Positions 3,908-61,060 of a stretch of 64,000 nt of DNA are shown here, piece after piece (position 1 is the stretch's first letter; every line of letters begins with the position of its first letter). The translations under genes and the position numbers were made by a program. The DNA is from a virus (Duplodnaviria; Caudoviricetes), in the IMG/VR virus record IMGVR_UViG_3300022555_000004. One strand, 5' to 3'. The notes under the pieces were generated by a model. That model saw only the letters and a list, made by a program, of their open reading frames with translations, was not told the DNA's origin and did not search any database.

Positions 3908-4815
3908 ACCATATCACCAATCCTTTTATTGATAAAATCATCAATCATTGTAAAGTCTTTATTTTTAATCCAATTATGATGATCAATAACCAATAGATCT
4001 ATATTTAATTCCTTACATTTTTCTTTTTTAATATTATCTTTATACTCCACATATTCTCCTTCATGCCAGTGGATAGCATTATATTCAATTGCCTTGTTTA
4101 TTTCTGGTAATAATATATCAAGTTCTAAAAATCTACCACTTTTAGGATTAATAACGGTTGACCTATCACCTGATATTACTTCATAATTATATTTATCCTT
4201 TATGTAATTACAAATTTCGACCTCTGGTTTAGATTTTTGAATTGACAATGCACATATCGGACATCGTTGGCCTTGTTGAAAACTATTATATCTCATTGTA
4301 AATTGATGTTTTTTAGGGCACATTAATCGTATATCATTGAACGCCCCTATATATTCTGATGATAATAATGAATATCCCTCTTGTTCAATAAATTCTTTTA
4401 TATCATCATATGGTGTTCTTCTTTTTTCTCTTGCACATGTTGGACATCTTTGACCTTGATGAAACGCCGAATACCTCATTTTAAATATATGTTCATTTGG
4501 ACATTTAATTTTTAATTTATCTATCGCTTTATTGTATGTATCACTCAATAACACATATCCGGCATCCTCTATATATTTTTGTATAACATCATATGAAGTC
4601 GAATTACTATTGGCTATTTTAGTATTTTTACATTCTGGATGATTACATCTCGTTCCTTTCAAAAAATTATAAAACATCGGATAAAAAGTATGACCTTTTG
4701 GGCACATTACTATCAATGGCCTCACTGATGTTTTATATTCTGTACTCAATAATTTATAACCTTCAACACTGTTAATTGTATCCCCAACATGTTTATAAGT
4801 TAATTTTTTACACAT
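3901..4815 (-). CDS. Free-standing homing endonuclease-like protein (three zinc-ribbon repeats plus PD-(D/E)xK domain)
   Basis: Repeats CPxxH.F.MRY..F.QGQRCPxC; C-terminal SKPEVEI...ELDILLPEINKAIEYNAIHWH; lies between gp4 and gp2. Confidence 0.75.
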   Translation of the reverse strand: MCKKLTYKHVGDTINSVEGYKLLSTEYKTSVRPLIVMCPKGHTFYPMFYNFLKGTRCNHPECKNTKIANSNSTSYDVIQKYIEDAGYVLLSDTYNKAIDKLKIKCPNEHIFKMRYSAFHQGQRCPTCAREKRRTPYDDIKEFIEQEGYSLLSSEYIGAFNDIRLMCPKKHQFTMRYNSFQQGQRCPICALSIQKSKPEVEICNYIKDKYNYEVISGDRSTVINPKSGRFLELDILLPEINKAIEYNAIHWHEGEYVEYKDNIKKEKCKELNIDLLVIDHHNWIKNKDFTMIDDFINKRIGDMVC

Positions 4816-7517: not shown

Positions 7518-7555
7518 TAATATTTTTCTCCATAATAAACGATGTTGTTTGGTAT

Positions 7556-7569
7556 TATTTATATAAATA
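7556..7569. promoter_or_regulatory. Overlapping divergent T4-type late promoters (TATAAATA on both strands)
   Basis: tatttatataaata: minus-strand TATAAATA at 7556-7563, plus-strand at 7562-7569, between divergent HAD genes. Confidence 0.7.
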
Positions 7570-7601
7570 GTTCTAAAGAAATTATACATGAGGTTATAAA
7601 A

Positions 7602-8282
7602 ATGCGTTTAAATTCATATTTGGATGAAAGTCAGAGTGTTTACGGGCCTGGCATAACATTCATGGATATTGATGACACAATTCTTAAAACATACGCCAGA
7701 GTTCAGATAAAAAAAGATGGCAAAACACTCCAACGATTACGAAATCATGAATACTTGACATATACGCCAAAAGAAGGCGAGGTTGCTGATTTTTCAGAAT
7801 ACTCTGATGCTGATGTATTTTACAAAACATCTGAACCTGTTGATCCCGTAATAAAAAGAATTCAAAAAATGTTTGTAAAATTAAAAGAACGTGGTTCTCG
7901 TATAGTAATAGTGTCTGGTAGAGAAGATGCTAATGATAAAAATAGATTTTTAGAAACATTCCGAAAATTTGGTGTTCCTATTGATGACATATATGTAGAA
8001 AGAGTTGGCAATGATCCGGCAGCGGTAAAAGACCTTCCTCATGCAAAAAAGAATGTTATACTAAAATATCTTAGTTCCGGTTTATATAGAAGGGCTCGTT
8101 TAGTAGATGACAGCACGGCAAATTGTGAAGTGTTTTTAGAATTAGAAGATGATTTGCCTGATAGTGTTTTAAATAAAATTAGAGATAAATATAATGTGCC
8201 TGATGGTGAGACACCAATAAAATTTTATGCACTAAAAGTATTGAAAAACGGGTCATTACAACAAATTGAACGAAATAACTAG
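7602..8282 (+). CDS. HAD-superfamily phosphatase paralog 3
   Basis: DIDDT, VSGR, AKK, VDD; probable start MRLNSYLDE at 7602 after a GAGG RBS. Confidence 0.8.
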   Translation: MRLNSYLDESQSVYGPGITFMDIDDTILKTYARVQIKKDGKTLQRLRNHEYLTYTPKEGEVADFSEYSDADVFYKTSEPVDPVIKRIQKMFVKLKERGSRIVIVSGREDANDKNRFLETFRKFGVPIDDIYVERVGNDPAAVKDLPHAKKNVILKYLSSGLYRRARLVDDSTANCEVFLELEDDLPDSVLNKIRDKYNVPDGETPIKFYALKVLKNGSLQQIERNN

Positions 8283-12081: not shown

Positions 12082-13503
12082 ATGATAACTTTTGACGATT
12101 TTGTAAATGAAGCCATAGATGATGATATTCGTGTTGTTGTTATAACAAGTCGTAAAAAATCTGGCGGATATTTCAAAACTTCTGGTAAAATAAAGAAAAT
12201 ATGTGATGATATGGGCATAAAAAATTATATTGCCTATGCTGAAGAAGTGTTTCTTGATAAAGATGATGAAGGCAAACTTCGATTACATAACACAGATGAT
12301 AAAAAAGGATTTAGAATTAGTAAAAACAATACAGTCGCTATCATAAGAAATAGTGTTACAAAAGGCCAAGCCAGTCTTGATTTTGTATCACAACTGGAAC
12401 GATATGGTATTTTTTGTGTAAATTCACGTCAAAACATAGAAGAATGTTACGATAAGTATCGCACATATTTGAAGATGTCTGACGCTAAAATTTCTACGCC
12501 TAAGACGGCACTTATAACAAGCGAACACGGTATTGAAGCCGGATTCAAAAAAGTTGGCGGAAAATTCCCTTGTATTATCAAAACACTTACAGGTGAACAG
12601 GGGGTTGGTGTATTTCTTGTTGATTCCGTAGAAGGCATGAAATCAACATTACAAACCATTTGGAAGCTAAAAGAAGGAACAGAGGTTATAATTCAAGAAT
12701 TTTTAAAAGCCGAATATGATATGAGAATACATATACTTGGAGGCAAGTATATTGCTGGAATGAAACGATTCAAAATCAAAAAGGATTTTAGGTCTAATTA
12801 TTCATTGGGCGGATCAGTAGGGGAACTAAAGATAACAGAGGATGTAGAAAATTTAGCAATCTTAGCTGCTAAATGTGTTGGTTCTGTATGGGCAGGCGTT
12901 GACATACTCAAAACTAAAGACGGAAAATTATATGTTCTTGAAATCAATGCTTCGCCGGGTACGGATGGCATAGAAAAGGCCAGCGGAATTCCTGTAACAA
13001 AGAAAGTAATAAAATATATAACAGACAGAGAAAACTGGTTTAGAACACCAACCGAATGTGGCTATATTGAAAATATTACAATTGAAGCCATGGGCGACAT
13101 GAAAGCAAAAATGGATACGGGTAATGGATCATATTGTGTTATTCATTCTGATAAATGGGAAATCAAAAAAGATGGATATGTAACATGGACACATTTAGGT
13201 AAAGAATTTGAACATAAGTTAGATGGAATGAAGAATGTTAGAACGATGGGCAAAATGGAAGAACGTCCATCTGTATTATTGAACGTAATCTTCAATGGCG
13301 ATACATATAAAGATGTAAAGTTTACAATTAGTAACAGAGAAAATATGAGCACGCCTATTTTATTGAACAGATCATTTATCAAACAGGCAAATTTAGTAAT
13401 AAATCCGGCTAAACGATATGCTCTTTCGTTGGGTGGGCCAAAAAAAGGCGATAAGAAAGAAGATATAAAAGAAAGCTCTGGAATCAGAGGATGGTTATTA
13501 TAG
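12082..13503 (+). CDS. RimK-like ATP-grasp ligase fused to a RimK-associated (DTG) protease domain
   Basis: PCIIK..TGEQGVGV, IIQEF, RIHILGG, FRSNYSLGG, GVDI, LEINASPG; C-terminal AKMDTGNG...ERP...LLNR. Confidence 0.88.
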   Translation: MITFDDFVNEAIDDDIRVVVITSRKKSGGYFKTSGKIKKICDDMGIKNYIAYAEEVFLDKDDEGKLRLHNTDDKKGFRISKNNTVAIIRNSVTKGQASLDFVSQLERYGIFCVNSRQNIEECYDKYRTYLKMSDAKISTPKTALITSEHGIEAGFKKVGGKFPCIIKTLTGEQGVGVFLVDSVEGMKSTLQTIWKLKEGTEVIIQEFLKAEYDMRIHILGGKYIAGMKRFKIKKDFRSNYSLGGSVGELKITEDVENLAILAAKCVGSVWAGVDILKTKDGKLYVLEINASPGTDGIEKASGIPVTKKVIKYITDRENWFRTPTECGYIENITIEAMGDMKAKMDTGNGSYCVIHSDKWEIKKDGYVTWTHLGKEFEHKLDGMKNVRTMGKMEERPSVLLNVIFNGDTYKDVKFTISNRENMSTPILLNRSFIKQANLVINPAKRYALSLGGPKKGDKKEDIKESSGIRGWLL

Positions 13504-13512
13504 GAGAAAACG

Positions 13513-13695
13513 ATGAATGTTAATGAAAAAATTGATAAATATTTGAAAGAAGAATTGGAAGTTGATGATGATACATATACATTTGATATTGGTGGTTTCG
13601 ATAAAGATGTAACACCGGATGATGAACGAATATTCAAATCTATAAATTATGATACAGGTAATGTTGTGGTACATGTGCATTTATATCAAGGTTGA
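13513..13695 (+). CDS. Small acidic protein with KYLKE motif
   Basis: AGGAG RBS; MNVNEKIDKYLKEE. Confidence 0.6.
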   Translation: MNVNEKIDKYLKEELEVDDDTYTFDIGGFDKDVTPDDERIFKSINYDTGNVVVHVHLYQG

Positions 13696-13868
13696 TGCCA
13701 GATTACGAGGAATTTACTTATTGTAAAAACTCTGCTGTATTAAGTCTTGTTAATAATGTAGGAAAAAACACAAATATGAAACCAATTAAAAAGATAGCAA
13801 CAAAATGTTGGTTTAGTTGTAAAAATTGGAAAGAACATAATGATATGTATAGTCAGGGAGGATAGATA

Positions 13869-17384: not shown

Positions 17385-18218
17385 ATGACTAGACTAAAAA
17401 AATATATCGTTGAATTTATAGAAAACGCTGAACAATGGGAAAAAGTACAAAACAAATATCCCATGATCAAATCAGCGGTTAAGATTATTATTAATATAAC
17501 TAATATGGGATATAAAGCATATTTGGTGGGCGGAGCAATTCGTGATATAGTTTTGGGCGATGAACCACATGATGTTGATATTTGTGGAAACGCTTCATTG
17601 GATGAAATACGAAAAATGTTTGATACATACGATTTGAGCGGAGAAGAATTTGGTATTATTGGCATTAAACTTGATGGACACACATATGAATATGCTCAAT
17701 TCAGATCAGACGGTAAATATGCTGATGGCCGTAAACCAGAAACTATAAAAATTGAAATGTCATTCAAAGAGGATGCTGCAAGACGAGATTTTAGCATTAA
17801 CGCACTTGCCATTGATAAAGATGGCAATATTATCGACTATTTTGATGGTCAAAAGGACATAAAAAATAAAATAATCAGAGCCGTTGGTGATCCGGAAAAA
17901 AGATTTGAGGAAGATCACCTACGAATATTGAGAGCTGCCCGTTTTGCGGCAAAACTAGGATTTACTATTGACAAAGATACAAAAGCCGCTGCAAAAAAAC
18001 TGTCATCTCACATCACTAAATTATCCCCCGAAAGAATCAAAGATGAAATTATTAAGGCGGCATCACAAGAAGGTAGTAAGTTTGCTGATTATATTTTACA
18101 ACTAGATGAATTAGGAATATTAGAAATCATTTTACCGGAAATAACTAAACAAAAAGGTTATGAACATCATATAGAACATCATCCCGAAGGGGCATATGTT
18201 AGAAAAATATTAAAATAA
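17385..18218 (+). CDS. cca: tRNA nucleotidyltransferase (CCA-adding enzyme), N-terminal fragment
   Basis: AYLVGGAIRD, HDVD, RRDFSINALA, RFEEDHLRILRAARF, SPERI; ends HHPEGAYVRKILK then stop. Confidence 0.9.
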   Translation: MTRLKKYIVEFIENAEQWEKVQNKYPMIKSAVKIIINITNMGYKAYLVGGAIRDIVLGDEPHDVDICGNASLDEIRKMFDTYDLSGEEFGIIGIKLDGHTYEYAQFRSDGKYADGRKPETIKIEMSFKEDAARRDFSINALAIDKDGNIIDYFDGQKDIKNKIIRAVGDPEKRFEEDHLRILRAARFAAKLGFTIDKDTKAAAKKLSSHITKLSPERIKDEIIKAASQEGSKFADYILQLDELGILEIILPEITKQKGYEHHIEHHPEGAYVRKILK

Positions 18219-18252
18219 TTTTTTACTTTCGTGTAATAATACTGTAAGATTT

Positions 18253-18260
18253 TATAAATA
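18253..18260 (+). promoter_or_regulatory. T4-type late promoter for the inserted endonuclease
   Basis: TATAAATA followed by an AGGAGG RBS. Confidence 0.75.
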
Positions 18261-18279
18261 GTATTAGGAGGTTTATTAC

Positions 18280-19176
18280 ATGAAACAAGATGAAAATTTA
18301 AAAATATTTTTAATTGACCTAATAGATAAACAGAAATTTAGATTTTGTAGAACAATTAAAGAGAAATACATTGATATAGAAAGAGAAATAAAAGAAAACA
18401 CATCTTTTTTTAATAGTGAAGTATCTCTAGCAGAAAGAATATATTGCATATTAAATGATATTAAGAATATTACCGTATGTCCTATATGTGAGAAAAAGGT
18501 AGTATATAGGAATTATACACTTGGATACCGTAAGCATTGTTCATCCCGATGTTCACAATTGGATGAAAAAACAAAAGAAAAGTATAAAAAAACATATAAT
18601 GAAAAATATGGTGAAAATGTTGATTGTAACTTTAAATTGAAGGATTTTTACAAAAAACAAAAAGTTATATTAAAAGAACGATATGGGGTGGAAAATGTTT
18701 CACAAATTGAGAATGTTAAAAATACTAAAAGAATTACATTTCAAAAAAATCATGGTGATATACCACATCCATTATGGGGTAACACATGGTATGATTTTAT
18801 AACACCTTCTGGAATAAAATTTAAAATACAAGGATATGAAAGGTTTGCATTACCAATTCTTATAAATAAATATGGTGAATGTAATATCTTAATAGACTAC
18901 AAAAGTATAAAAAATAAAATAGGCGAGATAACATATGTTGAAAATGATAAAAAATACCGCTATTATCCAGATTTTTTTATCATTTCAGAAAATAAAATAA
19001 TAGAAGTAAAATCAAAATTCACATTGGAACAACATCTGGATAATTTAAAAAATAAAATGTGTGAATGTTTAAACCGTGGCTATAAATTTGAAATAATTAT
19101 ATTTGATTATAAAGGAAATGATATTACACATGAACAGGACATTAAACGAATCCTTAAAAAAATTGGGGCCACCTGA
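18280..19176 (+). mobile_element. Free-standing homing endonuclease (zinc finger plus PD-(D/E)xK) inserted in the cca gene
   Basis: CPICE...HCSSRCS; KYGVENVSQ-like repeats; RYYPDFF...IIEVKS. Confidence 0.8.
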
Positions 19177-23475: not shown

Positions 23476-26400
23476 TTAGAAGAATAATTTCAAACTTTCT
23501 TTTGCTTTGACATATAATAGGTCGGTTTTACCCAATACTTTTAATAACATTTCACATTTATTCAAAAATGTTTTTTCAATCTGTCTAGTATAATCTACTT
23601 GTAACACCGAATCAAATTCCTTTGGCCATCTATTAAAGGCCATAGCATCAAATCCAAATTTGTTTTTCTTTACATAAAGAACCTTAACTTTTGCGTCTTC
23701 CATGATATCTTCATATTTTCCTTCTAATCCTAATATTTTCAAGAGAGCCCTATAATTAGCAACACCTTTTATTTGCATTGGTGTTCCTTTTACACTTTTA
23801 CCATCAGGCCCAATATATTTTTTAGTATCATGAATACCAATGTTTGTTGATATAGCCTCTGGTGGCATACCTTGTAGTTCTTTTTTACACTTAGAAATCA
23901 TGGTGGACAATTCATTATCTGATGAACCTTTGAGTATCATACTCATAATATCTTTTAAAACTGGGCGAACAACCTCTGGTGTATCAGACCGTACAATTTC
24001 AAGACCTGTAGTCTTTATTTTATCTACCGGATTTCTTTCTTCATCAACTATCCAAGCAGAATATTTCTTCTTTTTCACAAATAATATAGACTTGGCAATG
24101 ATTTCCCGTTTGAATTTTATTCTAAAATCGGTTTCTGTCGAATTATAAACGGTTCGTTGCATTTCTCTATATGCCTTATCATTTACATAATCCTCTGTTA
24201 CAACGGATATATTATGAATATGATTCATAATATATTCATCAGTTTTATTCTTCCACTCAACACCATATAAATCAAAAAGCCTACCAACATTAATAAACAA
24301 CGAATCTGTGTCCATATATAAAATTAAATCAACATCTTCACTAGGTTTTTTTGTAATGTCACGTTCCATATTATTCAATACATCTAATAATGCTTTTGAT
24401 GGTTTATTATACAATTGATTTACATATCGTTCAGATGCTTTGATTGTCTGCCTTCCACATGATACGATGGCTTCAGCAATGTTTGTATTGAAATAACGTG
24501 AGAATGGGACAGCCAAAATACCATAAGTTGAATTGAGAATAATTTTTAAAGCGTTTTGTAGACCTTGATACCTAGCAATTTTTTCTTTTGTTCGTTCAAA
24601 ATCTTTTCCTTTCAATTCAGGTAACGATTTTTTCATTTTTATCATTTTTTTCTTTACTTCGACACGTTTATAGAACATAGATTTTTCAACGGTTGCTATT
24701 ACGCCGGGAACGGTTGTAGAGAACACTGAACCACAAGGAGCGACACATAGGAATTTCTTTTTGAGTGCTTCTTGAAATATTTCCAATTTTCTACCAGAAA
24801 AACGAACCTTGCCAGTATCTTTCAACATATCAAATTCAGGCAAATCCCTATTCTTCATATGACTAATCATTTGATCTTCTGTGAATCCTATGATACGACC
24901 ATAGTAAGTTTCATTTGACATGTTTAGTGTAACGATGGCAGTTGGATATGAACTGATGATATCAAGGTCAATAACCCATTTGTGTAATCCAGTCAAGGGC
25001 TCTTTGACAAATGCTGCAGGAAATCCCTCTTGAACACCACCATAAAATGTTGGAGCACATAATCCGTTTCTTCTGAAATATGTGATAAGAATGCCTTCAA
25101 TTAGAGCAGTCTGTGTATGATAAAATTTCATCGGAGCTTTACATAACAAGGATAATGTTTGAATCAATTTGATATAACCAAGTTTTCCTTCTATTTGCCC
25201 AACACGATAAGCATCAATAATGTTATATTCAACATATAAATCCCAATTTTCATTATATAATTGTCTAAGGTCTTTATAGGCAGAGTAGTCCACCTTACCT
25301 TTTTCTAATTCATGGTTTGATACATAATCTAATGTGTATCGTTCTAGTTTTGCCGGTGAATACCATTTATAAACATCAAGATAATCAAGAAGTGTTACAC
25401 CAATTATATCAGCATTGAACTCACCATCTTTATTGATCCATGTTCTTACATTACTAATCGGTGATAAATTGTTGGCTACCTTACTATCCTCACCAAATAT
25501 TCTCAATGTACGATTGATAAGATATTGTATATCAAAAGATATGCAATTATGAACACGGACACCACTCGTTATAAAATAATTACTACTTGTTTTAATATCA
25601 CCCATTTCAACAGTTTCATCTGTTTCTTTAATATCATCTATTTTTATATAATAACATTCATCAATTTTTTTAAATCTTATTTGTGATGCTTTTTGTGATG
25701 ATGTTCTAGTATTTGTATTATACCTCATATTAGACCATCTATATGGATGGTTTAAATATAGTTTTGTTTCATCATATTCAATAAATCTCATGGTATTCTT
25801 ACTTCGTGTAACAAATATACCATTCCATAAACAAAGGTCGTATAGTTTATCAATACCATCGGATGTATAATCACATAGTCCCATCCCCACATCACTTTTA
25901 CACCCATCACCATCCAACACACCTGATAAAAATATGTAAAATTGTTCTTTTGATAATCTACTCAAAAGAGTTAAATTCAATGTTTTCTCACCGGCTTCAT
26001 TATATATATAATCATAAACATCCTTGATTATAGAATGTTTTATATGGCGACTATATCCTTTTTTCCTATCACCACATATACTTGTTGTTACATAAGGTAA
26101 TTGTTCTAATAATTCCGTATTTGATTGATATATTCTATACCCCTCACATTGTCGTGTCTTATCTCTCATTGATCCGTCTGTATAAATCAAACCGGCCATA
26201 TATAATAAATTATTATCAATATCAATATTATCATTTTTATTTAAATCGAAAGGAACTTGAACAAAACAGGATTTATCTAAAAAAGGTATATCACTAACTT
26301 TCATATCCCCTTCATTTAGTATTTGTTTATTTTTACGATTTTCAGATAATTTTGTATACTTATTATTATCAATGTATTTTATAGGTATTACATGATCTGC

Positions 26401-27147
26401 TGATGTTTTCAAAATATGACCATTTGATAATTTTATTTCATTCACTTTTTTGAAAGATCGTGGATAAACAATATTAACCATATCACCACTTGGTAGTATA
26501 TCACCTTTTGATATATCAGATAATAATACAATTTCTTTTTCTTTATATATCGTATTAGTAATAGGAATACAATTCCAACCAGTTATAACATCAGGGGCAT
26601 ATTTGTGCATAAATCCAAAGAATTGTTGTAATAATACTTCTTCATTCTTACAATGGATATAGGTCAGCCAAGGTTCTTTTTTATATTTACCATTATATTC
26701 TTTGATACCAAAGGTTGTTGTTTTATTTTCCAACATATTATATACTGAAATAAGAACAACAGGGGCCAACGCATCCTCAGCTTTAGGAAAAACATCTTGA
26801 AAATCGACTTCAATATCTATTGAGTAAATCTTCAATTTAGGATTTTCTATTTCATCATCAGGAATCTCATGATATCGTTCAGCCAGATATTGAATTTCTG
26901 GTCTTAGATTATTTTCTTTGCAATTAAGGTCAGATTTTTGGTAAATAAAGTAATCATTATATGTATTAAAAGTCTTTTTGGATACTGTATTACCTTCTAT
27001 TGATTTAATAGTGCCGTTTTCATCATCTATGAACACATATGGTATCCATTTTAATTCATTATACTTATCTTTCCCATTTATTTGGCTCCATAAATGTATG
27101 TTGTTAGTTCTACTATTATAATAAACATTCTTGAACATTATCCACAT
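23476..27147 (-). CDS. gp43: Family B DNA polymerase (T4 gp43-like) containing an intein
   Basis: DIEV (ExoI), TGWN..C.SFD..YL (ExoII, split by intein), YN..D, DLDIISSYP, K..LNSTYG, YMDTDS, KKKY. Confidence 0.95.
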   Translation of the reverse strand: MWIMFKNVYYNSRTNNIHLWSQINGKDKYNELKWIPYVFIDDENGTIKSIEGNTVSKKTFNTYNDYFIYQKSDLNCKENNLRPEIQYLAERYHEIPDDEIENPKLKIYSIDIEVDFQDVFPKAEDALAPVVLISVYNMLENKTTTFGIKEYNGKYKKEPWLTYIHCKNEEVLLQQFFGFMHKYAPDVITGWNCIPITNTIYKEKEIVLLSDISKGDILPSGDMVNIVYPRSFKKVNEIKLSNGHILKTSADHVIPIKYIDNNKYTKLSENRKNKQILNEGDMKVSDIPFLDKSCFVQVPFDLNKNDNIDIDNNLLYMAGLIYTDGSMRDKTRQCEGYRIYQSNTELLEQLPYVTTSICGDRKKGYSRHIKHSIIKDVYDYIYNEAGEKTLNLTLLSRLSKEQFYIFLSGVLDGDGCKSDVGMGLCDYTSDGIDKLYDLCLWNGIFVTRSKNTMRFIEYDETKLYLNHPYRWSNMRYNTNTRTSSQKASQIRFKKIDECYYIKIDDIKETDETVEMGDIKTSSNYFITSGVRVHNCISFDIQYLINRTLRIFGEDSKVANNLSPISNVRTWINKDGEFNADIIGVTLLDYLDVYKWYSPAKLERYTLDYVSNHELEKGKVDYSAYKDLRQLYNENWDLYVEYNIIDAYRVGQIEGKLGYIKLIQTLSLLCKAPMKFYHTQTALIEGILITYFRRNGLCAPTFYGGVQEGFPAAFVKEPLTGLHKWVIDLDIISSYPTAIVTLNMSNETYYGRIIGFTEDQMISHMKNRDLPEFDMLKDTGKVRFSGRKLEIFQEALKKKFLCVAPCGSVFSTTVPGVIATVEKSMFYKRVEVKKKMIKMKKSLPELKGKDFERTKEKIARYQGLQNALKIILNSTYGILAVPFSRYFNTNIAEAIVSCGRQTIKASERYVNQLYNKPSKALLDVLNNMERDITKKPSEDVDLILYMDTDSLFINVGRLFDLYGVEWKNKTDEYIMNHIHNISVVTEDYVNDKAYREMQRTVYNSTETDFRIKFKREIIAKSILFVKKKKYSAWIVDEERNPVDKIKTTGLEIVRSDTPEVVRPVLKDIMSMILKGSSDNELSTMISKCKKELQGMPPEAISTNIGIHDTKKYIGPDGKSVKGTPMQIKGVANYRALLKILGLEGKYEDIMEDAKVKVLYVKKNKFGFDAMAFNRWPKEFDSVLQVDYTRQIEKTFLNKCEMLLKVLGKTDLLYVKAKESLKLFF
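25546..26571 (-). mobile_element. Intein (342 aa) with LAGLIDADG homing endonuclease in the polymerase ExoII motif
   Basis: Starts C after TGWN, ends VHN before C-ISFD; LAGLIDADG-like YMAGLIYTDG and FLSGVLDGDG. Confidence 0.92.
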
Positions 27148-33843: not shown

Positions 33844-35217
33844 TTATAAAGAATTCAAAAAATTACCAACTTTTAATCCAGTTTTTATATTTTTGAACCC
33901 ATCAGATGTAGGAAACTTATGGTCTGCTGAACATATAATTTCTTTACCACTTTTTGTTTTTATTTTATACATTTTTTTAATTTTTTTATTGAAAACTCTG
34001 TTTACAGATACATTGCCATCGCTGCCTTTGATAATATCACCTTTTTTGAGATTACATATCTTTTCATTTTTATATGTTTTTCCATCCCACATCAACACAT
34101 CGGTATCTAATGACAAACATTCTGAAATGAACGTGAAATCAACTTCATCAAATGTAATGTTCATTCCTTCTCTGTTCAACTGGCTTACTGATACAACCGG
34201 CATCAAAAACTCAAACGATAATGCTCGTAGTTCTTCGGCTATAGATTTTACATCAGAATACATTTCACCTTTTGTTCTATATGCCGGTTTCATAAGATTC
34301 AAATAATCACATATGAAAATATCTGGTTTGATGCCACGAATCAACAATTCTCTAATATATTTTCGATAATCATCAACTGTGGCCTTGCCGGTAGGATATT
34401 GTTTGATATATAAATTTCCGCGTGTTGTTGATGCCTTCAAAACATCCAATGAACGAACCAATTTAGATTGTAATGGACGTTCTCTATACATTTTATTGAT
34501 ATCAAGTAACGATAGAATTGAGTCAAATCTTTGTGCAAAGGCTTCTTCTGACATTTCAAGTGAGGCTAATATGACATTTTTTCCGGCCATAACCTCTCTA
34601 GCCGCCATGTTAGCTAAGAATGTTGATTTGAACCCATGAATACGTGCCACCATTACAGACAATGTATATGGGGGAAATCCGCCTGATATATATTCGTCTA
34701 ATACAGGGAATCCTGATGGTATACGTATTTCACTTCTTGTGAAAATCTTTGTAAGTCGTTCATCAAGTGTGCCAAAATAATCAAGACCTAAATCAATTTT
34801 TAGGTCTTTACTTATGGCATCTTCTACCAATCGCCGTATCATTCCAATATCTTCTTTCTTATTGATAACATCGACTGATGATAATATTGCTTTTTTGACA
34901 GCTTTTTCTTTCAAATATTCGTTAGTGCTGGTGAATAAGAAATCATAATTATTGATGTAGTCAAAATCCGTTGCATCAATTTCACGAAAAAAATCTGCAA
35001 CATCAGTTGATCCTTCTTTATCAAATTCACTGATGATTGCTACTCTAGGTGGGATATTCTTATATTCTTGAAAATGTTTGATACTGTAATCATATATTTT
35101 TGACGCTGTTTGATTATCAAAATACTCTTTGTCGAATACAGACGATAGTGTTGCTATGTATTGTGGGTCTACCATACACCCTTTGATGATAAGATGTTCT
35201 AATAAAACAGATTCCAT
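33844..35217 (-). CDS. gp41: gp41 DnaB-like replicative helicase N-terminal part plus split-intein N fragment (Int-N, 91 aa, 33844..34119)
   Basis: ARIHGFKS (Walker A), SLEMSE, ICDYLNLM, VSVSQLNR; then FISE|CLSLDT...CSADHKFPT...GLKVG stop. Confidence 0.92.
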   Translation of the reverse strand: MESVLLEHLIIKGCMVDPQYIATLSSVFDKEYFDNQTASKIYDYSIKHFQEYKNIPPRVAIISEFDKEGSTDVADFFREIDATDFDYINNYDFLFTSTNEYLKEKAVKKAILSSVDVINKKEDIGMIRRLVEDAISKDLKIDLGLDYFGTLDERLTKIFTRSEIRIPSGFPVLDEYISGGFPPYTLSVMVARIHGFKSTFLANMAAREVMAGKNVILASLEMSEEAFAQRFDSILSLLDINKMYRERPLQSKLVRSLDVLKASTTRGNLYIKQYPTGKATVDDYRKYIRELLIRGIKPDIFICDYLNLMKPAYRTKGEMYSDVKSIAEELRALSFEFLMPVVSVSQLNREGMNITFDEVDFTFISECLSLDTDVLMWDGKTYKNEKICNLKKGDIIKGSDGNVSVNRVFNKKIKKMYKIKTKSGKEIICSADHKFPTSDGFKNIKTGLKVGNFLNSL

Positions 35218-35797: not shown

Positions 35798-36235
35798 TTA
35801 TGCCTTCCCATTACATGACATAATAAAAGCGTATGATGATTGTTTACAATTCTTTTTACATTTTATACAAATTTCATTGAGTTTGGCCCAAAACTGTTTG
35901 GCTGTTGGATGTGTATCTGTTCCATTTTCTGTCTTTTCAAATACAATAGGAACATCTTTGATATATAAACTTTGTATCTTGAATTTGGTAAGAAATTCCT
36001 CTGCTTCACCTTTTGTCTTGGTTTTTTTCATCCATTGTTTTAGTGTAAGATATTCCTGTGTTTCAGTAACATCAGATAGCTTGTTTATTTGTTTGGTTTT
36101 TCGTAATTTATCTTCTTTGATAGTGCCCGTAAACCATTTATTCGATTTTTTATATACGATTTTTGCGTTCATATTACCCTCACTTTCAAAAATATTATAC
36201 CATAATTGAATCAAAATGTCAATAAATGGTGCCAT
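35798..36235 (-). CDS. Hypothetical protein (true start probably MNAKIVY)
   Basis: GAGG RBS before MNAK; promoter TTGACA-17-TATAAT at 36194-36222. Confidence 0.55.
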   Translation of the reverse strand: MAPFIDILIQLWYNIFESEGNMNAKIVYKKSNKWFTGTIKEDKLRKTKQINKLSDVTETQEYLTLKQWMKKTKTKGEAEEFLTKFKIQSLYIKDVPIVFEKTENGTDTHPTAKQFWAKLNEICIKCKKNCKQSSYAFIMSCNGKA

Positions 36236-36302
36236 AGGTGGGAATAGAACCCACGTTGACGGCGTTTTAGAGGCGCCCGCTTAACCACTCAGCTACTACG
36301 GC
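36227..36302 (-). tRNA. tRNA with CUA anticodon (amber suppressor type)
   Basis: 76 nt. Acceptor GCCGUAG/CUAUGGC plus ACCA; D-arm GCU-GAGUGGUUA-AGC; anticodon arm GGCGC-CUCUAAA-ACGCC (C31.A39 mismatch); T-arm GUGGG-UUCUAUU-CCCAC; anticodon at 36268-36270. Confidence 0.88.
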
Positions 36303-36311
36303 ACATTATTT

Positions 36312-36650
36312 TTAGGTCAACATTTCTAAATCACTTAGAAATCCAGCATCTTCTTCATCAATCAATCCACAAATTCCTGTCAAAAGATCATCCCCAAATG
36401 GATAATTATCTGGCTCATGGAACATATATATGTCAATGTCTCTTCTTTCAAAGGAAAACATTACACCATATAATTGATCAGTATCAGGCACTTCCAGATA
36501 TATCAAATATTGATTATCCCATAACTTAGCATCAGGACTGTTCAAACAAAACTCAGCAACTATATGCCCTGCTTGAACTGCTGGTGATGAACACAATAAA
36601 TTTTTACGCACAATTACATATAGTCTGTTGTTTTTCATATTTTTCAACAA
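36312..36650 (-). CDS. Pth2-like peptidyl-tRNA hydrolase (start probably 36638)
   Basis: RLYVIVRK.L....AVQAGH.VAEF...YL.V...F.EPD...LT.I. Confidence 0.75.
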   Translation of the reverse strand: MLKNMKNNRLYVIVRKNLLCSSPAVQAGHIVAEFCLNSPDAKLWDNQYLIYLEVPDTDQLYGVMFSFERRDIDIYMFHEPDNYPFGDDLLTGICGLIDEEDAGFLSDLEMLT

Positions 36651-36906
36651 TCTCCTTCTTTATTTTATCAATGTATGTTTGGTTTGCTAGGTTGTTCTTT
36701 GCAGGAATCTCAATTTGATCTCTTGTTCTTCCCCTCAACTCACAATAAGCTATGTGGTGGTGCCGGAATTTATACTTTTTTTGAAAGATGGCATAATCAT
36801 CTTGGCTTAAATCATGCCCTTGTCTATTTGATAATGGTCTATAACTTTTCAATTCTTTAATTTCTTTAGCTAACAGTTTTAAATATTCTTTGGTTTCTTT
36901 TAACAT
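36604..36906 (-). CDS. Basic 100-aa protein upstream of the Pth2-like gene
   Basis: LKLLAKEIKELK...FRHHHIAYCELRGRTRDQIE; AGGAG RBS 8 nt upstream. Confidence 0.7.
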   Translation of the reverse strand: MLKETKEYLKLLAKEIKELKSYRPLSNRQGHDLSQDDYAIFQKKYKFRHHHIAYCELRGRTRDQIEIPAKNNLANQTYIDKIKKEIVEKYEKQQTICNCA

Positions 36907-36916
36907 GGCTTGTTCT

Positions 36917-36996
36917 CCTATAATATTGGTTTCAGGTTCTTTGTTCTGAAATATTATAGGCGGCCCTCTAAGTAATTGGATCTACTTCATTTTCAT
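36917..36996 (-). promoter_or_regulatory. Leader micro-ORF (M-K-UAG-IQLLRGPP) plus SD-sequestering hairpin
   Basis: GGAGG RBS, ATG 36990, AAG, TAG 36984-36982, then open in frame to ATG 36906. CCUAUAAUAUU (36960-36950) pairs perfectly with AAUAUUAUAGG (36927-36917), which contains the AGG of the SD. Confidence 0.75.
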
Positions 36997-37019
36997 TTCC
37001 TCCCTCATGTTGATGTAAC

Positions 37020-37048
37020 AATATAACACAAATATAATCGGTTGTCAA
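37020..37048 (-). promoter_or_regulatory. Sigma70-type promoter of the leader-Pth2-tRNA operon
   Basis: TTGACA-17-TATATT with TG extension. Confidence 0.75.
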
Positions 37049-37117
37049 CTATTATTTATATTTACTTATTATAGTAAATAATGTAAAATATGACATATAA
37101 AAAATGGAGGCATATTT

Positions 37118-37573: not shown

Positions 37574-39013
37574 ATGACAATTAAAATAAAAAAATATGAT
37601 GCTCTACATATTCAAATTGTAACAGATAATAAGGCATATATAGCCGATATCAAAGAACATTTTACGGAATTCGTTGAGGGCTACAAATTTATGGGACGTT
37701 TTAAATGTGGCGGTTGGAATGGGAAAATTTGTGTTATGGCATCAAACAATACATTACCATATGGCCTCTTGTTTGATGTTATCAAATTTACAAAAACGAA
37801 ATATAATCACTTTGAATTACAAGTGGATAACGATGTTAAAGATTTTTTTTCGGGAATTGAAAATCCAGAACTTGAATATGATTTGGACATATGGCCCCGT
37901 GATTATCAAATTGATTGTATAGAAACAGCGCTAAAATATAAACGTTGTATAATGAGAGTTGCAACAGCCGGGGGCAAATCTTTAATTATATCATATATAA
38001 TAAAGTATTTAATGGATACAAACAAAATACAACGGGCTATTATTATAGTTCCAACGCAATCCCTCGTTGAACAATTTTTTAAAGATATGAATGAATATGG
38101 CATGGATATTAATAAAATTGGTAGGGTTTATTCAAAAATAAAAGAATATGATAAATCCATCGTTATATCTACTTGGCAAAGTCTATCAAGAAACCTTGAA
38201 TGGATTAAAGATTTTCAATGTGTAATATGTGATGAGGTACATGGTGTGCGAGGAGTAGAACTAAGAAAAATACTATCACATGCCATCAATGCCGATTTTC
38301 GTATGGGATTTACAGGAACATTACCCATATCAAAATTAGATATATTTAATATAAAAGGATTTATTGGCCCTGTTATTAGAGAATATGGATCATCTGAACT
38401 ATCCGAAAAAGGATATATATCACATTGTAAGGTAAACATAATCAATATCCAATATAGTAAAGAGTATTCAGGGGAATATGATGTAGTAAAAGATGAAGTA
38501 TTTAATAATATTAATAGACTGTCTTTAATAAAAAATATTGTTAAATCAATAGATGGTAATATTCTTTTATTGGTCGGTAAAGTAGAAAAAGAGGGCAAAG
38601 TATTACAGGAATATCTTTCAAATATTGAAGGTAAAGAAGTTGTCTTTATATGGGGCGATACCCCTGTGGCAGAAAGAGAAAAATGGCGCATGGAGTGCGA
38701 AAAAAGAAAAAACATTATTCTTATTGCCACATATGGTATAATGAGTGTTGGTGTTAATATACCAAGTCTAAAATATATTTTATTTGCATCACCATTTAAA
38801 TCAAAAATTCGTATTTTACAATCTATTGGAAGATCATTAAGATTACACATTGATAAAGAAGAAGCGATAATTTATGATTTAGCAGATGATGTGTTGTATT
38901 TAAAAGATCATTCGATAAAAAGATTAAGATACTATGGTTCAGAGAAATTTGAAGTAATTGAAACTAAACACAACATAAATCAGTTTTCCTTATTTTCCAT
39001 CCCTTCCAAGTAA
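37574..39013 (+). CDS. uvsW: SF2 DNA helicase UvsW
   Basis: PRDYQ, ATAGGKS, DEVH, GFTGT, GVNIP, LQSIGRSLR. Confidence 0.92.
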   Translation: MTIKIKKYDALHIQIVTDNKAYIADIKEHFTEFVEGYKFMGRFKCGGWNGKICVMASNNTLPYGLLFDVIKFTKTKYNHFELQVDNDVKDFFSGIENPELEYDLDIWPRDYQIDCIETALKYKRCIMRVATAGGKSLIISYIIKYLMDTNKIQRAIIIVPTQSLVEQFFKDMNEYGMDINKIGRVYSKIKEYDKSIVISTWQSLSRNLEWIKDFQCVICDEVHGVRGVELRKILSHAINADFRMGFTGTLPISKLDIFNIKGFIGPVIREYGSSELSEKGYISHCKVNIINIQYSKEYSGEYDVVKDEVFNNINRLSLIKNIVKSIDGNILLLVGKVEKEGKVLQEYLSNIEGKEVVFIWGDTPVAEREKWRMECEKRKNIILIATYGIMSVGVNIPSLKYILFASPFKSKIRILQSIGRSLRLHIDKEEAIIYDLADDVLYLKDHSIKRLRYYGSEKFEVIETKHNINQFSLFSIPSK

Positions 39014-60796: not shown

Positions 60797-61060
60797 CTAT
60801 TTGCCTCTCTTATCAAGAACTAATTTCGTATATAATACCATCATTACTTTACGTAAAAGTAATATAACAATAACAATTGGCCAAAATATACCACCCCAAC
60901 TACTCAGGGCAAACCAAATACAAAAATCAGAGAAATCAATATAATCCAAATATACATTTTGTGATTTAACCCAATAAATAAATGTCCCAAACCAAAATAC
61001 AATCCCTATAATAATATAACTAATCCAAAATTCTAACATTTTATATAACCTCACTTTCAA
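60797..61060 (-). CDS. Small two-TM protein (GIFWP family) 1
   Basis: GGIFWP; promoter TTGCCG-17-TATAGT at 61066-61094. Confidence 0.6.
   Translation of the reverse strand: MKVRLYKMLEFWISYIIIGIVFWFGTFIYWVKSQNVYLDYIDFSDFCIWFALSSWGGIFWPIVIVILLLRKVMMVLYTKLVLDKRGK

Follow-up and report, generated by a model that had tools for sequence, protein, structure and literature searches.

What does a phage that ends its own genes with UAG do with a transfer RNA (tRNA) that reads UAG? The 64,000-nucleotide (nt) stretch of phage DNA analyzed here (IMG/VR record IMGVR_UViG_3300022555_000004; hereafter the window) encodes a tRNA with the anticodon CUA, tRNA(CUA). It is the last element of a small operon that runs from a promoter through a leader, a gene for a 100-residue helical protein and a gene for a protein of predicted Pth2 fold. 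We propose, with moderate confidence, that in this T4-like freshwater phage of standard genetic code tRNA(CUA) licenses or times the translation of its own operon through a UAG codon in the leader. The proposal builds on the tRNA itself, on the use of the standard code in the window and in three large relatives, on the linkage of the tRNA gene to the Pth2-like gene, on leaders in which a UAG is followed by an R-x-P-P motif and a hairpin over a Shine-Dalgarno (SD) sequence, and on UAG codons that occur inside the Pth2-like gene of other phages. The preliminary description of this DNA had suggested that the tRNA serves conditional suppression or is regulatory; the leader UAG of the operon to which the tRNA belongs gives that suggestion a concrete and conserved target.

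The tRNA, its operon and the UAG leader

ARAGORN finds a single tRNA gene in the window, on the minus strand and with the anticodon CTA (Table 1). The gene matches Rfam model RF00005 over its full length (model positions 1 to 71 of 71; 52.1 bits against a cut-off of 29, E 2.6e-08), and the cloverleaf is its minimum-free-energy fold. By direct reading of the sequence, the acceptor stem pairs from G1-C72 through G7-C66, including G4-U69, and is followed by the discriminator A73 and an encoded CCA. The anticodon loop, CUCUAAA, has the seven nucleotides, the U33 and the purine at position 37 of an amber-suppressor loop. The anticodon stem contains a C31.A39 mismatch, the T-loop is UUCUAUU with U57, and the variable region has 6 nt. 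The complete 76-nt cloverleaf with CCA that was given in the preliminary description is thus recovered by ARAGORN, Rfam and the minimum-free-energy fold alike, and each detail listed there (CUA, A73, C31.A39, UUCUAUU, the 6-nt variable region) agrees with our reading; the ARAGORN run that it suggested returns the tRNA with CTA and adds the strand, which had been left unstated. It had also named an error in the anticodon as one finding that would overturn it. The identical tRNA with CTA, together with an identical neighbouring protein, is present in five independent assemblies (ENA, Logan, JGI), and contigs of four DNA runs from two studies show zero differing letters over positions 36150-37100, which rules out a sequencing error. 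By its sequence features the tRNA is a genuine phage-encoded amber suppressor tRNA, predicted to decode UAG. An exact pattern for its anticodon arm with the anticodon left free had zero matches in viral contigs, and no near-identical DNA was found among cultured phages.

ARAGORN labels the tRNA 'Pyl', a label that derives from the anticodon alone. The hallmarks of tRNA-Pyl are a compact D-loop, a 3-nt variable loop and a 6-bp anticodon stem, and it is without the usual G18G19 and T-loop elements. The window tRNA differs from it in an ordinary, canonical D-loop (AGUGGUUAA) with G18G19, a 5-bp anticodon stem, a 6-nt variable region and a standard T-arm. The likeness is confined to the CUA anticodon, and identity as tRNA-Pyl is ruled out by structure.

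The informative context of the tRNA is its operon, with the leader, the helical protein and the Pth2-like gene, all of which the preliminary description missed. Upstream of the leader lies a match to an early promoter, and directly after the tRNA a second promoter match, for the next gene, is taken from its sequence to mark the 3' boundary of the operon. The stop codon of the Pth2-like gene is 10 nt ahead of the tRNA start; an upstream TTG at 36650 would extend its product to 112 residues, and the gene contains no in-frame TAG in the window phage. The AlphaFold2 model of the protein has a pLDDT of 93.7, and the top 15 Foldseek matches to this model in the PDB are all Pth2 or Bit1, with TM scores of 0.6-0.8 (maximum 0.80) and E values down to 5.6e-06. 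Compared with Pth2 proteins (PF01981; PDB 2zv3, 3erj and 1xty; human Bit1, 1q7s), the modelled protein shares the fold and the Q...H motif of helix 1, and it has an acidic residue at the site of the DAG aspartate. It differs from them in that identity is 12-20%, the GKGK loop of archaeal Pth2 is missing and the match to PF01981, at 11.6 bits, lies below the gathering cut-off of 23. Across the family, 26 of 37 members match PF01981 (PTH2) at E values up to 1 (best 1.8e-10), one close homologue of the window protein carries PF01981, the family profile matches PDB Pth2 chains, and the residues Q22, H25, E75, D77 and T87 are invariant. On the strength of these models and matches we predict that the 108-residue protein has the Pth2 fold. 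The 100-residue protein encoded ahead of it has homologues at the corresponding position, immediately before the Pth2-like gene, in about 20 loci. Its predicted structure is all-helical (pLDDT 92.6); it has zero matches in Pfam, PHROGs and the PDB, and a fold search gave no significant match. Because the reading frames of the two genes overlap, they are probably translationally coupled.

In the leader, a strong SD sequence, GAGGGAGG (37006-36999), is followed by a mini open reading frame (ORF) of four codons and a UAG at 36984-36982. Were the UAG read through, the frame would continue for eight codons and end in RGPP (36969-36958). The 5' arm of a predicted 11-bp hairpin, CCTATAATATT (36960-36950), begins at the second Pro codon of this motif, and the 3' arm, AATATTATAGG (36927-36917), overlaps the AGGAG SD sequence (36919-36915) of the 100-residue protein's gene. 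Of the arrest cores reported, RAPP and RGPP resist EF-P and are the most robust, with RGPP in first place (PMC12992588). Here, as in leaders built on such cores, R-[AG]-P-P ends a small upstream ORF and the putative stall site is coupled to a structure predicted to hide an SD sequence. Among the called proteins of the window (18,952 residues) and of G001, a relative with a 180-kb genome (55,755 residues), the motif R[AG]PP does not occur, in agreement with the reported exclusion of such motifs from proteomes.

Table 1. Features of the tRNA(CUA) operon, in the order in which they are transcribed, and the promoter that follows it.
Feature	Position	Strand	Basis or detail
Sigma-70-type early promoter, TTGACA-17 nt-TATATT, TG before -10	37020..37048	minus	11/12 consensus matches; consensus match only
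Leader mini-ORF, ATG AAA ATG AAG TAG (MKMK-stop)	36982..36996	minus	ends in the leader UAG
Read-through extension, IQLLRGPP	36958..36981	minus	ends in RGPP
Hairpin over SD of 100-residue protein gene	36917..36960	minus	RNAfold, -15.6 kcal/mol, z -3.1
100-residue all-helical protein, conserved core YxFRHxHIAYCELRGRTRxQIExP	36604..36906	minus	homologues in about 20 loci
Pth2-fold protein, 108 residues from ATG	36312..36638	minus	AlphaFold2, Foldseek, family profile
tRNA(CUA), 76 nt, encoded CCA	36227..36302	minus	ARAGORN, Rfam, cloverleaf fold
Promoter of next gene, TTGACA-17 nt-TATAAT, directly after tRNA	36194..36222	minus	12/12 consensus matches; consensus match only

How specific is this arrangement? 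We searched for a pattern consisting of an SD sequence, a start codon, one to three codons, TAG and then R-(x)-P-P, with TAA and TGA versions as controls. The TAG pattern occurs once in the window, both strands considered, and once in G001, each time ahead of the Pth2-like operon, and the TAA and TGA versions occur in neither sequence; the window contains no other open frame gated by an early TAG. Among the loci described below, the pattern is present in 16 distinct ones (the window and 15 others), in every case at a distance of 334-546 nt before the Pth2-like start; the TAA control has 0 hits and the TGA control has 1. The motif takes the form RGPP, RAPP, RSPP, RDPP or RPP, and several leaders have two UAGs. 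Of 15 leaders that were folded, 10 are predicted to pair their Pro-Pro codons with the SD region of the next gene, and in the remaining 5 the hairpin that hides the SD sequence begins a few nt past the prolines; the arm sequences diverge between phages and the pairing is kept. In most relatives the leader frame is closed by a stop soon past the prolines, which argues that the conserved feature is a stall site and not a fusion protein or an N-terminal extension. One leader, that of the L024 operon, holds three TAGs, reading MFK(TAG)IKIPP(TAG)VRGPP(TAG).

The linkage of tRNA and enzyme extends well beyond the window. A profile search with the Pth2-like family retrieved 63 viral loci with 27-64% identity, 55 of them distinct after deduplication. 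In 47 of these 55, the Pth2-like gene is followed on its own strand by a suppressor tRNA at a distance of 4-894 nt (median 92 nt), and a suppressor is the first downstream tRNA in 48 (47 CUA, 1 UCA); three more loci have a CUA tRNA nearby in another position, and one stops at the contig end. In an independent collection of contigs from metagenome-assembled genomes, a CUA tRNA stands beside the Pth2-like gene in four of seven loci. The CUA tRNA of G001 (72528-72601; loci L077-L085; 26% GC) is the sole tRNA that ARAGORN finds in that genome. At L024:4924-4988 there is a D-arm-reduced CUA tRNA that scores 31 bits with Infernal and is missed by ARAGORN, and suppressor tRNAs in such phages may be undercounted. 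The single UCA (opal-reading) tRNA, at L044:4341-4414, lies behind the Pth2-like gene where other lineages carry CUA. We also note a UUA-anticodon tRNA (L106:2240-2312) about 700 nt upstream of, and on the same strand as, the Pth2-like homologue of the TAG-recoded Prevotella phage Lak-A2 (MK250019.1). Separately, phage transfer-messenger RNA (tmRNA) genes occur within a few kb of the module in unrelated loci (L019:5277-5662, L024:1855-2186, L045:2434-2775 and L113:1597-1924), a proximity that fits a link to ribosome rescue.

In other phages, the UAG lies within the enzyme gene itself. Twelve other distinct sequences have a Pth2-like frame that is conserved but for an in-frame TAG. The TAG lies at codon 4-5, in the loop past helix 1 or just ahead of the invariant E-P-D, and its sites span five or more columns of the alignment. 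The frame is conserved beyond the TAG, and two of these copies are in genomes of standard code, G006 (locus L014) and G008 (locus L050). The leader motif is absent from these loci. Since the TAG recurs at many sites, independent lineages have repeatedly made the operon depend on UAG decoding.

Among 39 distinct related CUA tRNAs (loci L009-L069), the most conserved part is the anticodon loop, which is CUCUAAA in 21 and CCCUAAA in seven; a CUCUAAA-type loop is the form best suited to amber suppression. The pair G1-C72 is present in 35, and the acceptor stems and discriminators vary (A in 23, U in eight, G in six and C in two). Ten of the 39, the window's included, have a non-Watson-Crick 31:39 pair (A.C, C.A or C.C), so C31.A39 is a family trait, and it perhaps keeps suppression weak. 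Which amino acid might the tRNA insert? Comparison with 154 sense tRNAs of the same phages gave best matches at 0.65-0.69 identity, spread across many isotypes, and assignment from the nearest sense tRNA was set aside as uninformative; the window tRNA is nearer to other Pth2-linked CUA tRNAs, at 0.70-0.79 identity. The in-frame TAGs of the Pth2-like alignment fall mostly in variable columns and so say little about the inserted residue. In the Pth2-like ORF of L068 (near 4001-4294), which has two in-frame TAGs, the second aligns gap-free with a family-invariant Trp; this single case is the only hint that the alignment gives on the amino acid inserted by the tRNA family, and it is not decisive. 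In E. coli, synthetic amber suppressors made from class I tRNA bodies with CUA tend toward charging by GlnRS or LysRS, and A73 of the window tRNA would, we presume, suit Lys better than Gln. The most likely candidates would be Gln or Lys.

Genetic code of the phage and its relatives

The preliminary description started from the premise that CUA tRNAs usually accompany code 15, in which TAG is a sense codon. That premise is overstated: the standard-code phages XacN1 and Atu_ph07 carry suppressor tRNAs, and Borges et al. found one in a standard-code relative of recoded phages (10.1101/2021.08.26.457843). The source record of the window, a linear IMG/VR contig, has 64,375 bases and a completeness rating of 39%. 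Record and window disagree at a single position in 64,000 bases (53336, A versus T), so the window comes from a near-identical, separate assembly.

The window holds early and middle genes, and no virion or lysis gene was found in its 64 kb. PolB (1223 residues; 23476-27147), UvsW (479 residues; 37574-39013) and gp32 (323 residues) are uninterrupted under code 11, as had been claimed; a DnaB-like helicase, a CCA-adding enzyme and a Pnk-like kinase are encoded as well. With a simple codon-usage caller, 94 genes are called under code 11 (93 in the run used for coding fractions), and their stops are TAA in 63, TGA in 21 and TAG in 10, which bears out the earlier statement that several genes end in TAG. 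The statement that the core genes are not TAG-recoded holds for the genes of the window, but its scope covers only a class of genes that recoded phages also spare: such phages retain the standard code in their replication genes (10.1101/2021.08.26.457843). The window alone therefore cannot settle the question of recoding, and we read three large relatives end to end.

The comparison of coding density under codes 11 and 15 that had been recommended gave the same answer in all four sequences. The coding fraction of the window is 0.884 under code 11 and 0.870 with TAG as sense, and a control with TGA as sense behaved the same. It likewise falls from 0.931 to 0.921 in G001 (180 kb), from 0.814 to 0.784 in G006 (174 kb) and from 0.872 to 0.849 in G008 (212 kb) when TAG is read as sense. 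In these genomes TAG ends 23-30 genes each (9-13% of genes; 12% in G001), often in TAGGAG junctions. The gene for the gp23 capsid protein is open in six relatives, and the best 120 capsid homologues of the clade are all 478-508 residues long. Thus density falls with TAG as sense and TAG is still a terminator in the window, G001, G006 and G008, the reverse of what membership among code-15 phages would entail. The lineage uses the standard code; for the late genes of the window phage itself we infer this.

We also looked for products of read-through elsewhere in the window. Three candidate fusions (12082-13503 to the ORF at 13513, 13692-13865 to 13869, and 60797-61060 to 60557) were rejected, as the downstream ORFs have their own ATG and SD sequence within one to three codons of the TAG. 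Extensions after TAG stops show no clear difference in length from those after TAA. An apparent parallel in G001, an extension that has 63 codons as well, is not homologous.

Several other features of the window deserve mention. The segment 12082-14147 contains an ATP-grasp gene (RimK-like, phrog_2599) followed by three small ORFs of 60, 57 and 92 residues, which could encode substrates of the ligase; two junctions in this cluster are TAG stops in frame with the next ORF, and they look ordinary, the ORFs having their own starts. The segments 7542-8282 and 17385-19176 encode the Pnk-like kinase (phrog_415) and the CCA-adding enzyme (phrog_2244, E 3e-66). An ORF resembling a homing endonuclease follows the CCA-adding enzyme, an enzyme that is worth noting beside a tRNA with an encoded CCA. 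At 33844-35217, the C-terminus of the DnaB-like helicase has weak intein/Hint matches (PF14890 and PF05203), both below cut-off. Finally, positions 1-2785, at the contig start, are highly repetitive and open in several frames on both strands (an 837-residue plus-strand frame and a 928-residue minus-strand frame); the region looks like a low-complexity repeat protein, for example a fibre gene, and either strand may code.

Proposed mechanism and alternatives

How might the tRNA control its own operon? As the sequence is laid out, the early promoter would yield one transcript that ends in tRNA(CUA). Without charged tRNA, ribosomes that initiate on the leader would end at the UAG after MKMK, about 24 nt before the hairpin, and the hairpin would stay closed. 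Once processed and charged tRNA(CUA) had built up, some ribosomes would read the UAG, translate eight more codons and reach Arg-Gly-Pro-Pro. If they stalled there with the first Pro codon occupying the P site, the whole 5' arm of the hairpin would come to lie inside the mRNA channel and the SD sequence would be freed. The gene for the 100-residue protein would then be translated and, by overlap, the Pth2-like gene as well. The Pth2-like enzyme would be made only during active suppression, where it presumably clears the peptidyl-tRNA of read-through or limits the level of suppression. Such a circuit would be a feed-forward loop, a timer or a licence. What we infer in this scheme is that the tRNA is charged and with which amino acid, that the ribosome stalls and the hairpin opens, which substrate the enzyme acts on and how the phage benefits. 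In its general form, in which tRNA(CUA), the UAG...RGPP leader and the SD hairpin make up a self-contained read-through sensor that times or doses a Pth2-type enzyme in many standard-code large phages, we regard the proposal as evenly balanced between right and wrong.

A number of points weigh against a licence or timer of this kind. The low score of the Pth2-like protein against its Pfam profile, together with the absence of the GKGK loop, means that hydrolase activity is not assured for the modelled fold. The leader peptides have only 11-18 residues, and longer nascent chains served in the published tests of RAPP and RGPP peptides, so that efficient stalling at RGPP is an assumption. No adapted read-through product was found in the window or G001, and RNA runs that carry the operon locus are not listed. 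TAG is the terminator of 10 of the window's 94 genes and of 12% of those in G001, and back-up stops are not enriched. A strong suppressor should be costly; as the TAG stops are neither depleted nor backed up, suppression would have to be weak, brief or tolerated. The circuit is, moreover, circular, and a tRNA with no visible target beyond its own operon leaves the gain of the phage unexplained. Lastly, the source record is 39% complete, so the late genes of the window phage lie outside the data.

That last gap is where partial code-15 recoding would fit: the tRNA would read in-frame TAGs of late (virion or lysis) genes beyond the window, in the manner of crAss-like and Lak phages, and the leader would be a side feature. 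The window's restriction to early and middle genes allows this, as do the spared replication genes of recoded phages (10.1101/2021.08.26.457843) and the fact that TAG-recoded Lak phages carry a Pth2-like homologue beside a suppressor-type tRNA. The three relatives read end to end (174-212 kb) gain nothing from TAG as sense, however, and they stop 9-13% of their genes with it, while the capsid gene is open in six relatives and full length among the best 120 homologues of the clade; we consider recoding very unlikely. A reading in which the tRNA does not decode at all strikes us as less likely still. Here the tRNA would serve as a decoy or spare part for defence against anticodon nucleases of the host, act as a tRNA-like element that processes or stabilizes the operon transcript at its 3' end, or come from a decaying gene with a chance CUA. 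The repair and maturation enzymes of the window (the CCA-adding enzyme and the Pnk-like kinase) would suit such a role, and U57, C31.A39 and the varying discriminators of the relatives are unusual. Yet the anticodon loop is the most conserved part of the 39 distinct tRNAs and has the form best for amber suppression, a UCA tRNA has taken the place of the CUA tRNA in one lineage, and UAGs recur at many independent positions of the neighbouring leader or Pth2-like gene. The frame beyond these UAGs is conserved, which is sensible only if UAG is decoded.

More serious, though in our estimate still unlikely, is the idea that low-level suppression across the genome is the real function of the tRNA, through competition with release factor 1 at host and phage UAGs in the course of host takeover, and that the gated operon provides clean-up or dosage control. 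Suppression would then extend proteins or load the ribosome-rescue systems. This idea is compatible with the leader switch and differs from it only in the purpose of the tRNA. The module has been retained in 55 or more diverged phages, which suggests an advantage other than self-regulation, the tRNA lies behind an early promoter, and several loci have a phage tmRNA gene close to the module. A Pth-type enzyme is also the expected remedy for the peptidyl-tRNA of rescued ribosomes, and the PTH2 of jumbo phages has been discussed in these terms (PMC7824862). On the other side, extensions after TAG are not clearly longer than those after TAA, the in-frame ORFs downstream have their own start and SD sequence, and the authors of the XacN1 study likewise saw no extension with database similarity (PMC5852040). 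C31.A39 and U57, furthermore, suggest a weak decoder. We retain the licence or timer for the tRNA's own operon as our preferred reading.

Relation to known systems

The tRNA belongs to a known class, and its setting is known in part; the regulatory role proposed for it is new and probably applies to many large phages. In the literature searched, we found no description of the operon, of a UAG-armed arrest leader or of a pairing between a suppressor tRNA and Pth2; the role noted for the PTH2 of jumbo phages is ribosome rescue or tRNA recycling, unconnected with a suppressor (PMC7824862).

With the code-15 phages, namely the crAss-like and Lak phages (10.1101/2021.08.26.457843; Peters et al., PMC9523058; TAG as Gln), the window phage shares a phage-encoded tRNA(CUA), a low GC content and a host that presumably uses the standard code. 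The proposal that the tRNA times gene expression is also common to both, and the Lak phages share the Pth2-like homologue. The difference is that here no gene of the window, and none detected in three whole relatives, needs TAG as sense outside the tRNA's own operon, and TAG stops about 10% of genes. XacN1, which has two CUA tRNAs (PMC5852040), and Atu_ph07, which has one UCA tRNA (PMC6102473), are closer in kind: each is a large standard-code phage with a suppressor tRNA and a peptidyl-tRNA hydrolase. The papers on these phages identified no target and left the tRNA and hydrolase unlinked, whereas here both are adjacent in one operon and the leader UAG is the proposed target. The suppressor tRNAs of standard-code phages have had no target assigned to them in such reports and have otherwise been read as a step toward recoding, and the present operon offers a target that is conserved and testable. 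If the proposal is correct, it would define the first target for the long-puzzling suppressor tRNAs of phages that are not recoded.

The leader recalls the RAPP/RGPP arrest peptides (ApdA, ApdP and ApcA, and SecM with RAGP; PMC7897499, PMC10951233 and PMC12992588). As with them, a small upstream ORF closes with an R-[AG]-P-P core, and the putative stall site overlaps the 5' arm of a hairpin hiding the SD sequence of the next gene. The known peptides sense protein export and their core is reached by every ribosome, whereas the putative core here lies behind a UAG and the peptide is much shorter.

The design would unite three known elements, a suppressor tRNA, an RGPP arrest core and an SD hairpin, in a combination that we have not found described. 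It would tie a Pth2-type enzyme of phages functionally to stop-codon suppression, and the module is a plausible first foothold for the evolution of full TAG recoding. If the proposal holds, the leader would be a compact natural sensor of UAG read-through that could be reused as a reporter of suppressor activity in genetic-code expansion. A logical precedent is found in prfB, the gene for release factor 2, which is autoregulated through an in-frame UGA. In both cases an early stop codon gauges the efficiency of its own decoding and thereby sets expression. The prfB gene gauges the release factor and escapes by a +1 frameshift, whereas the leader described here would gauge the suppressor tRNA and would act by a stall and the opening of a hairpin.

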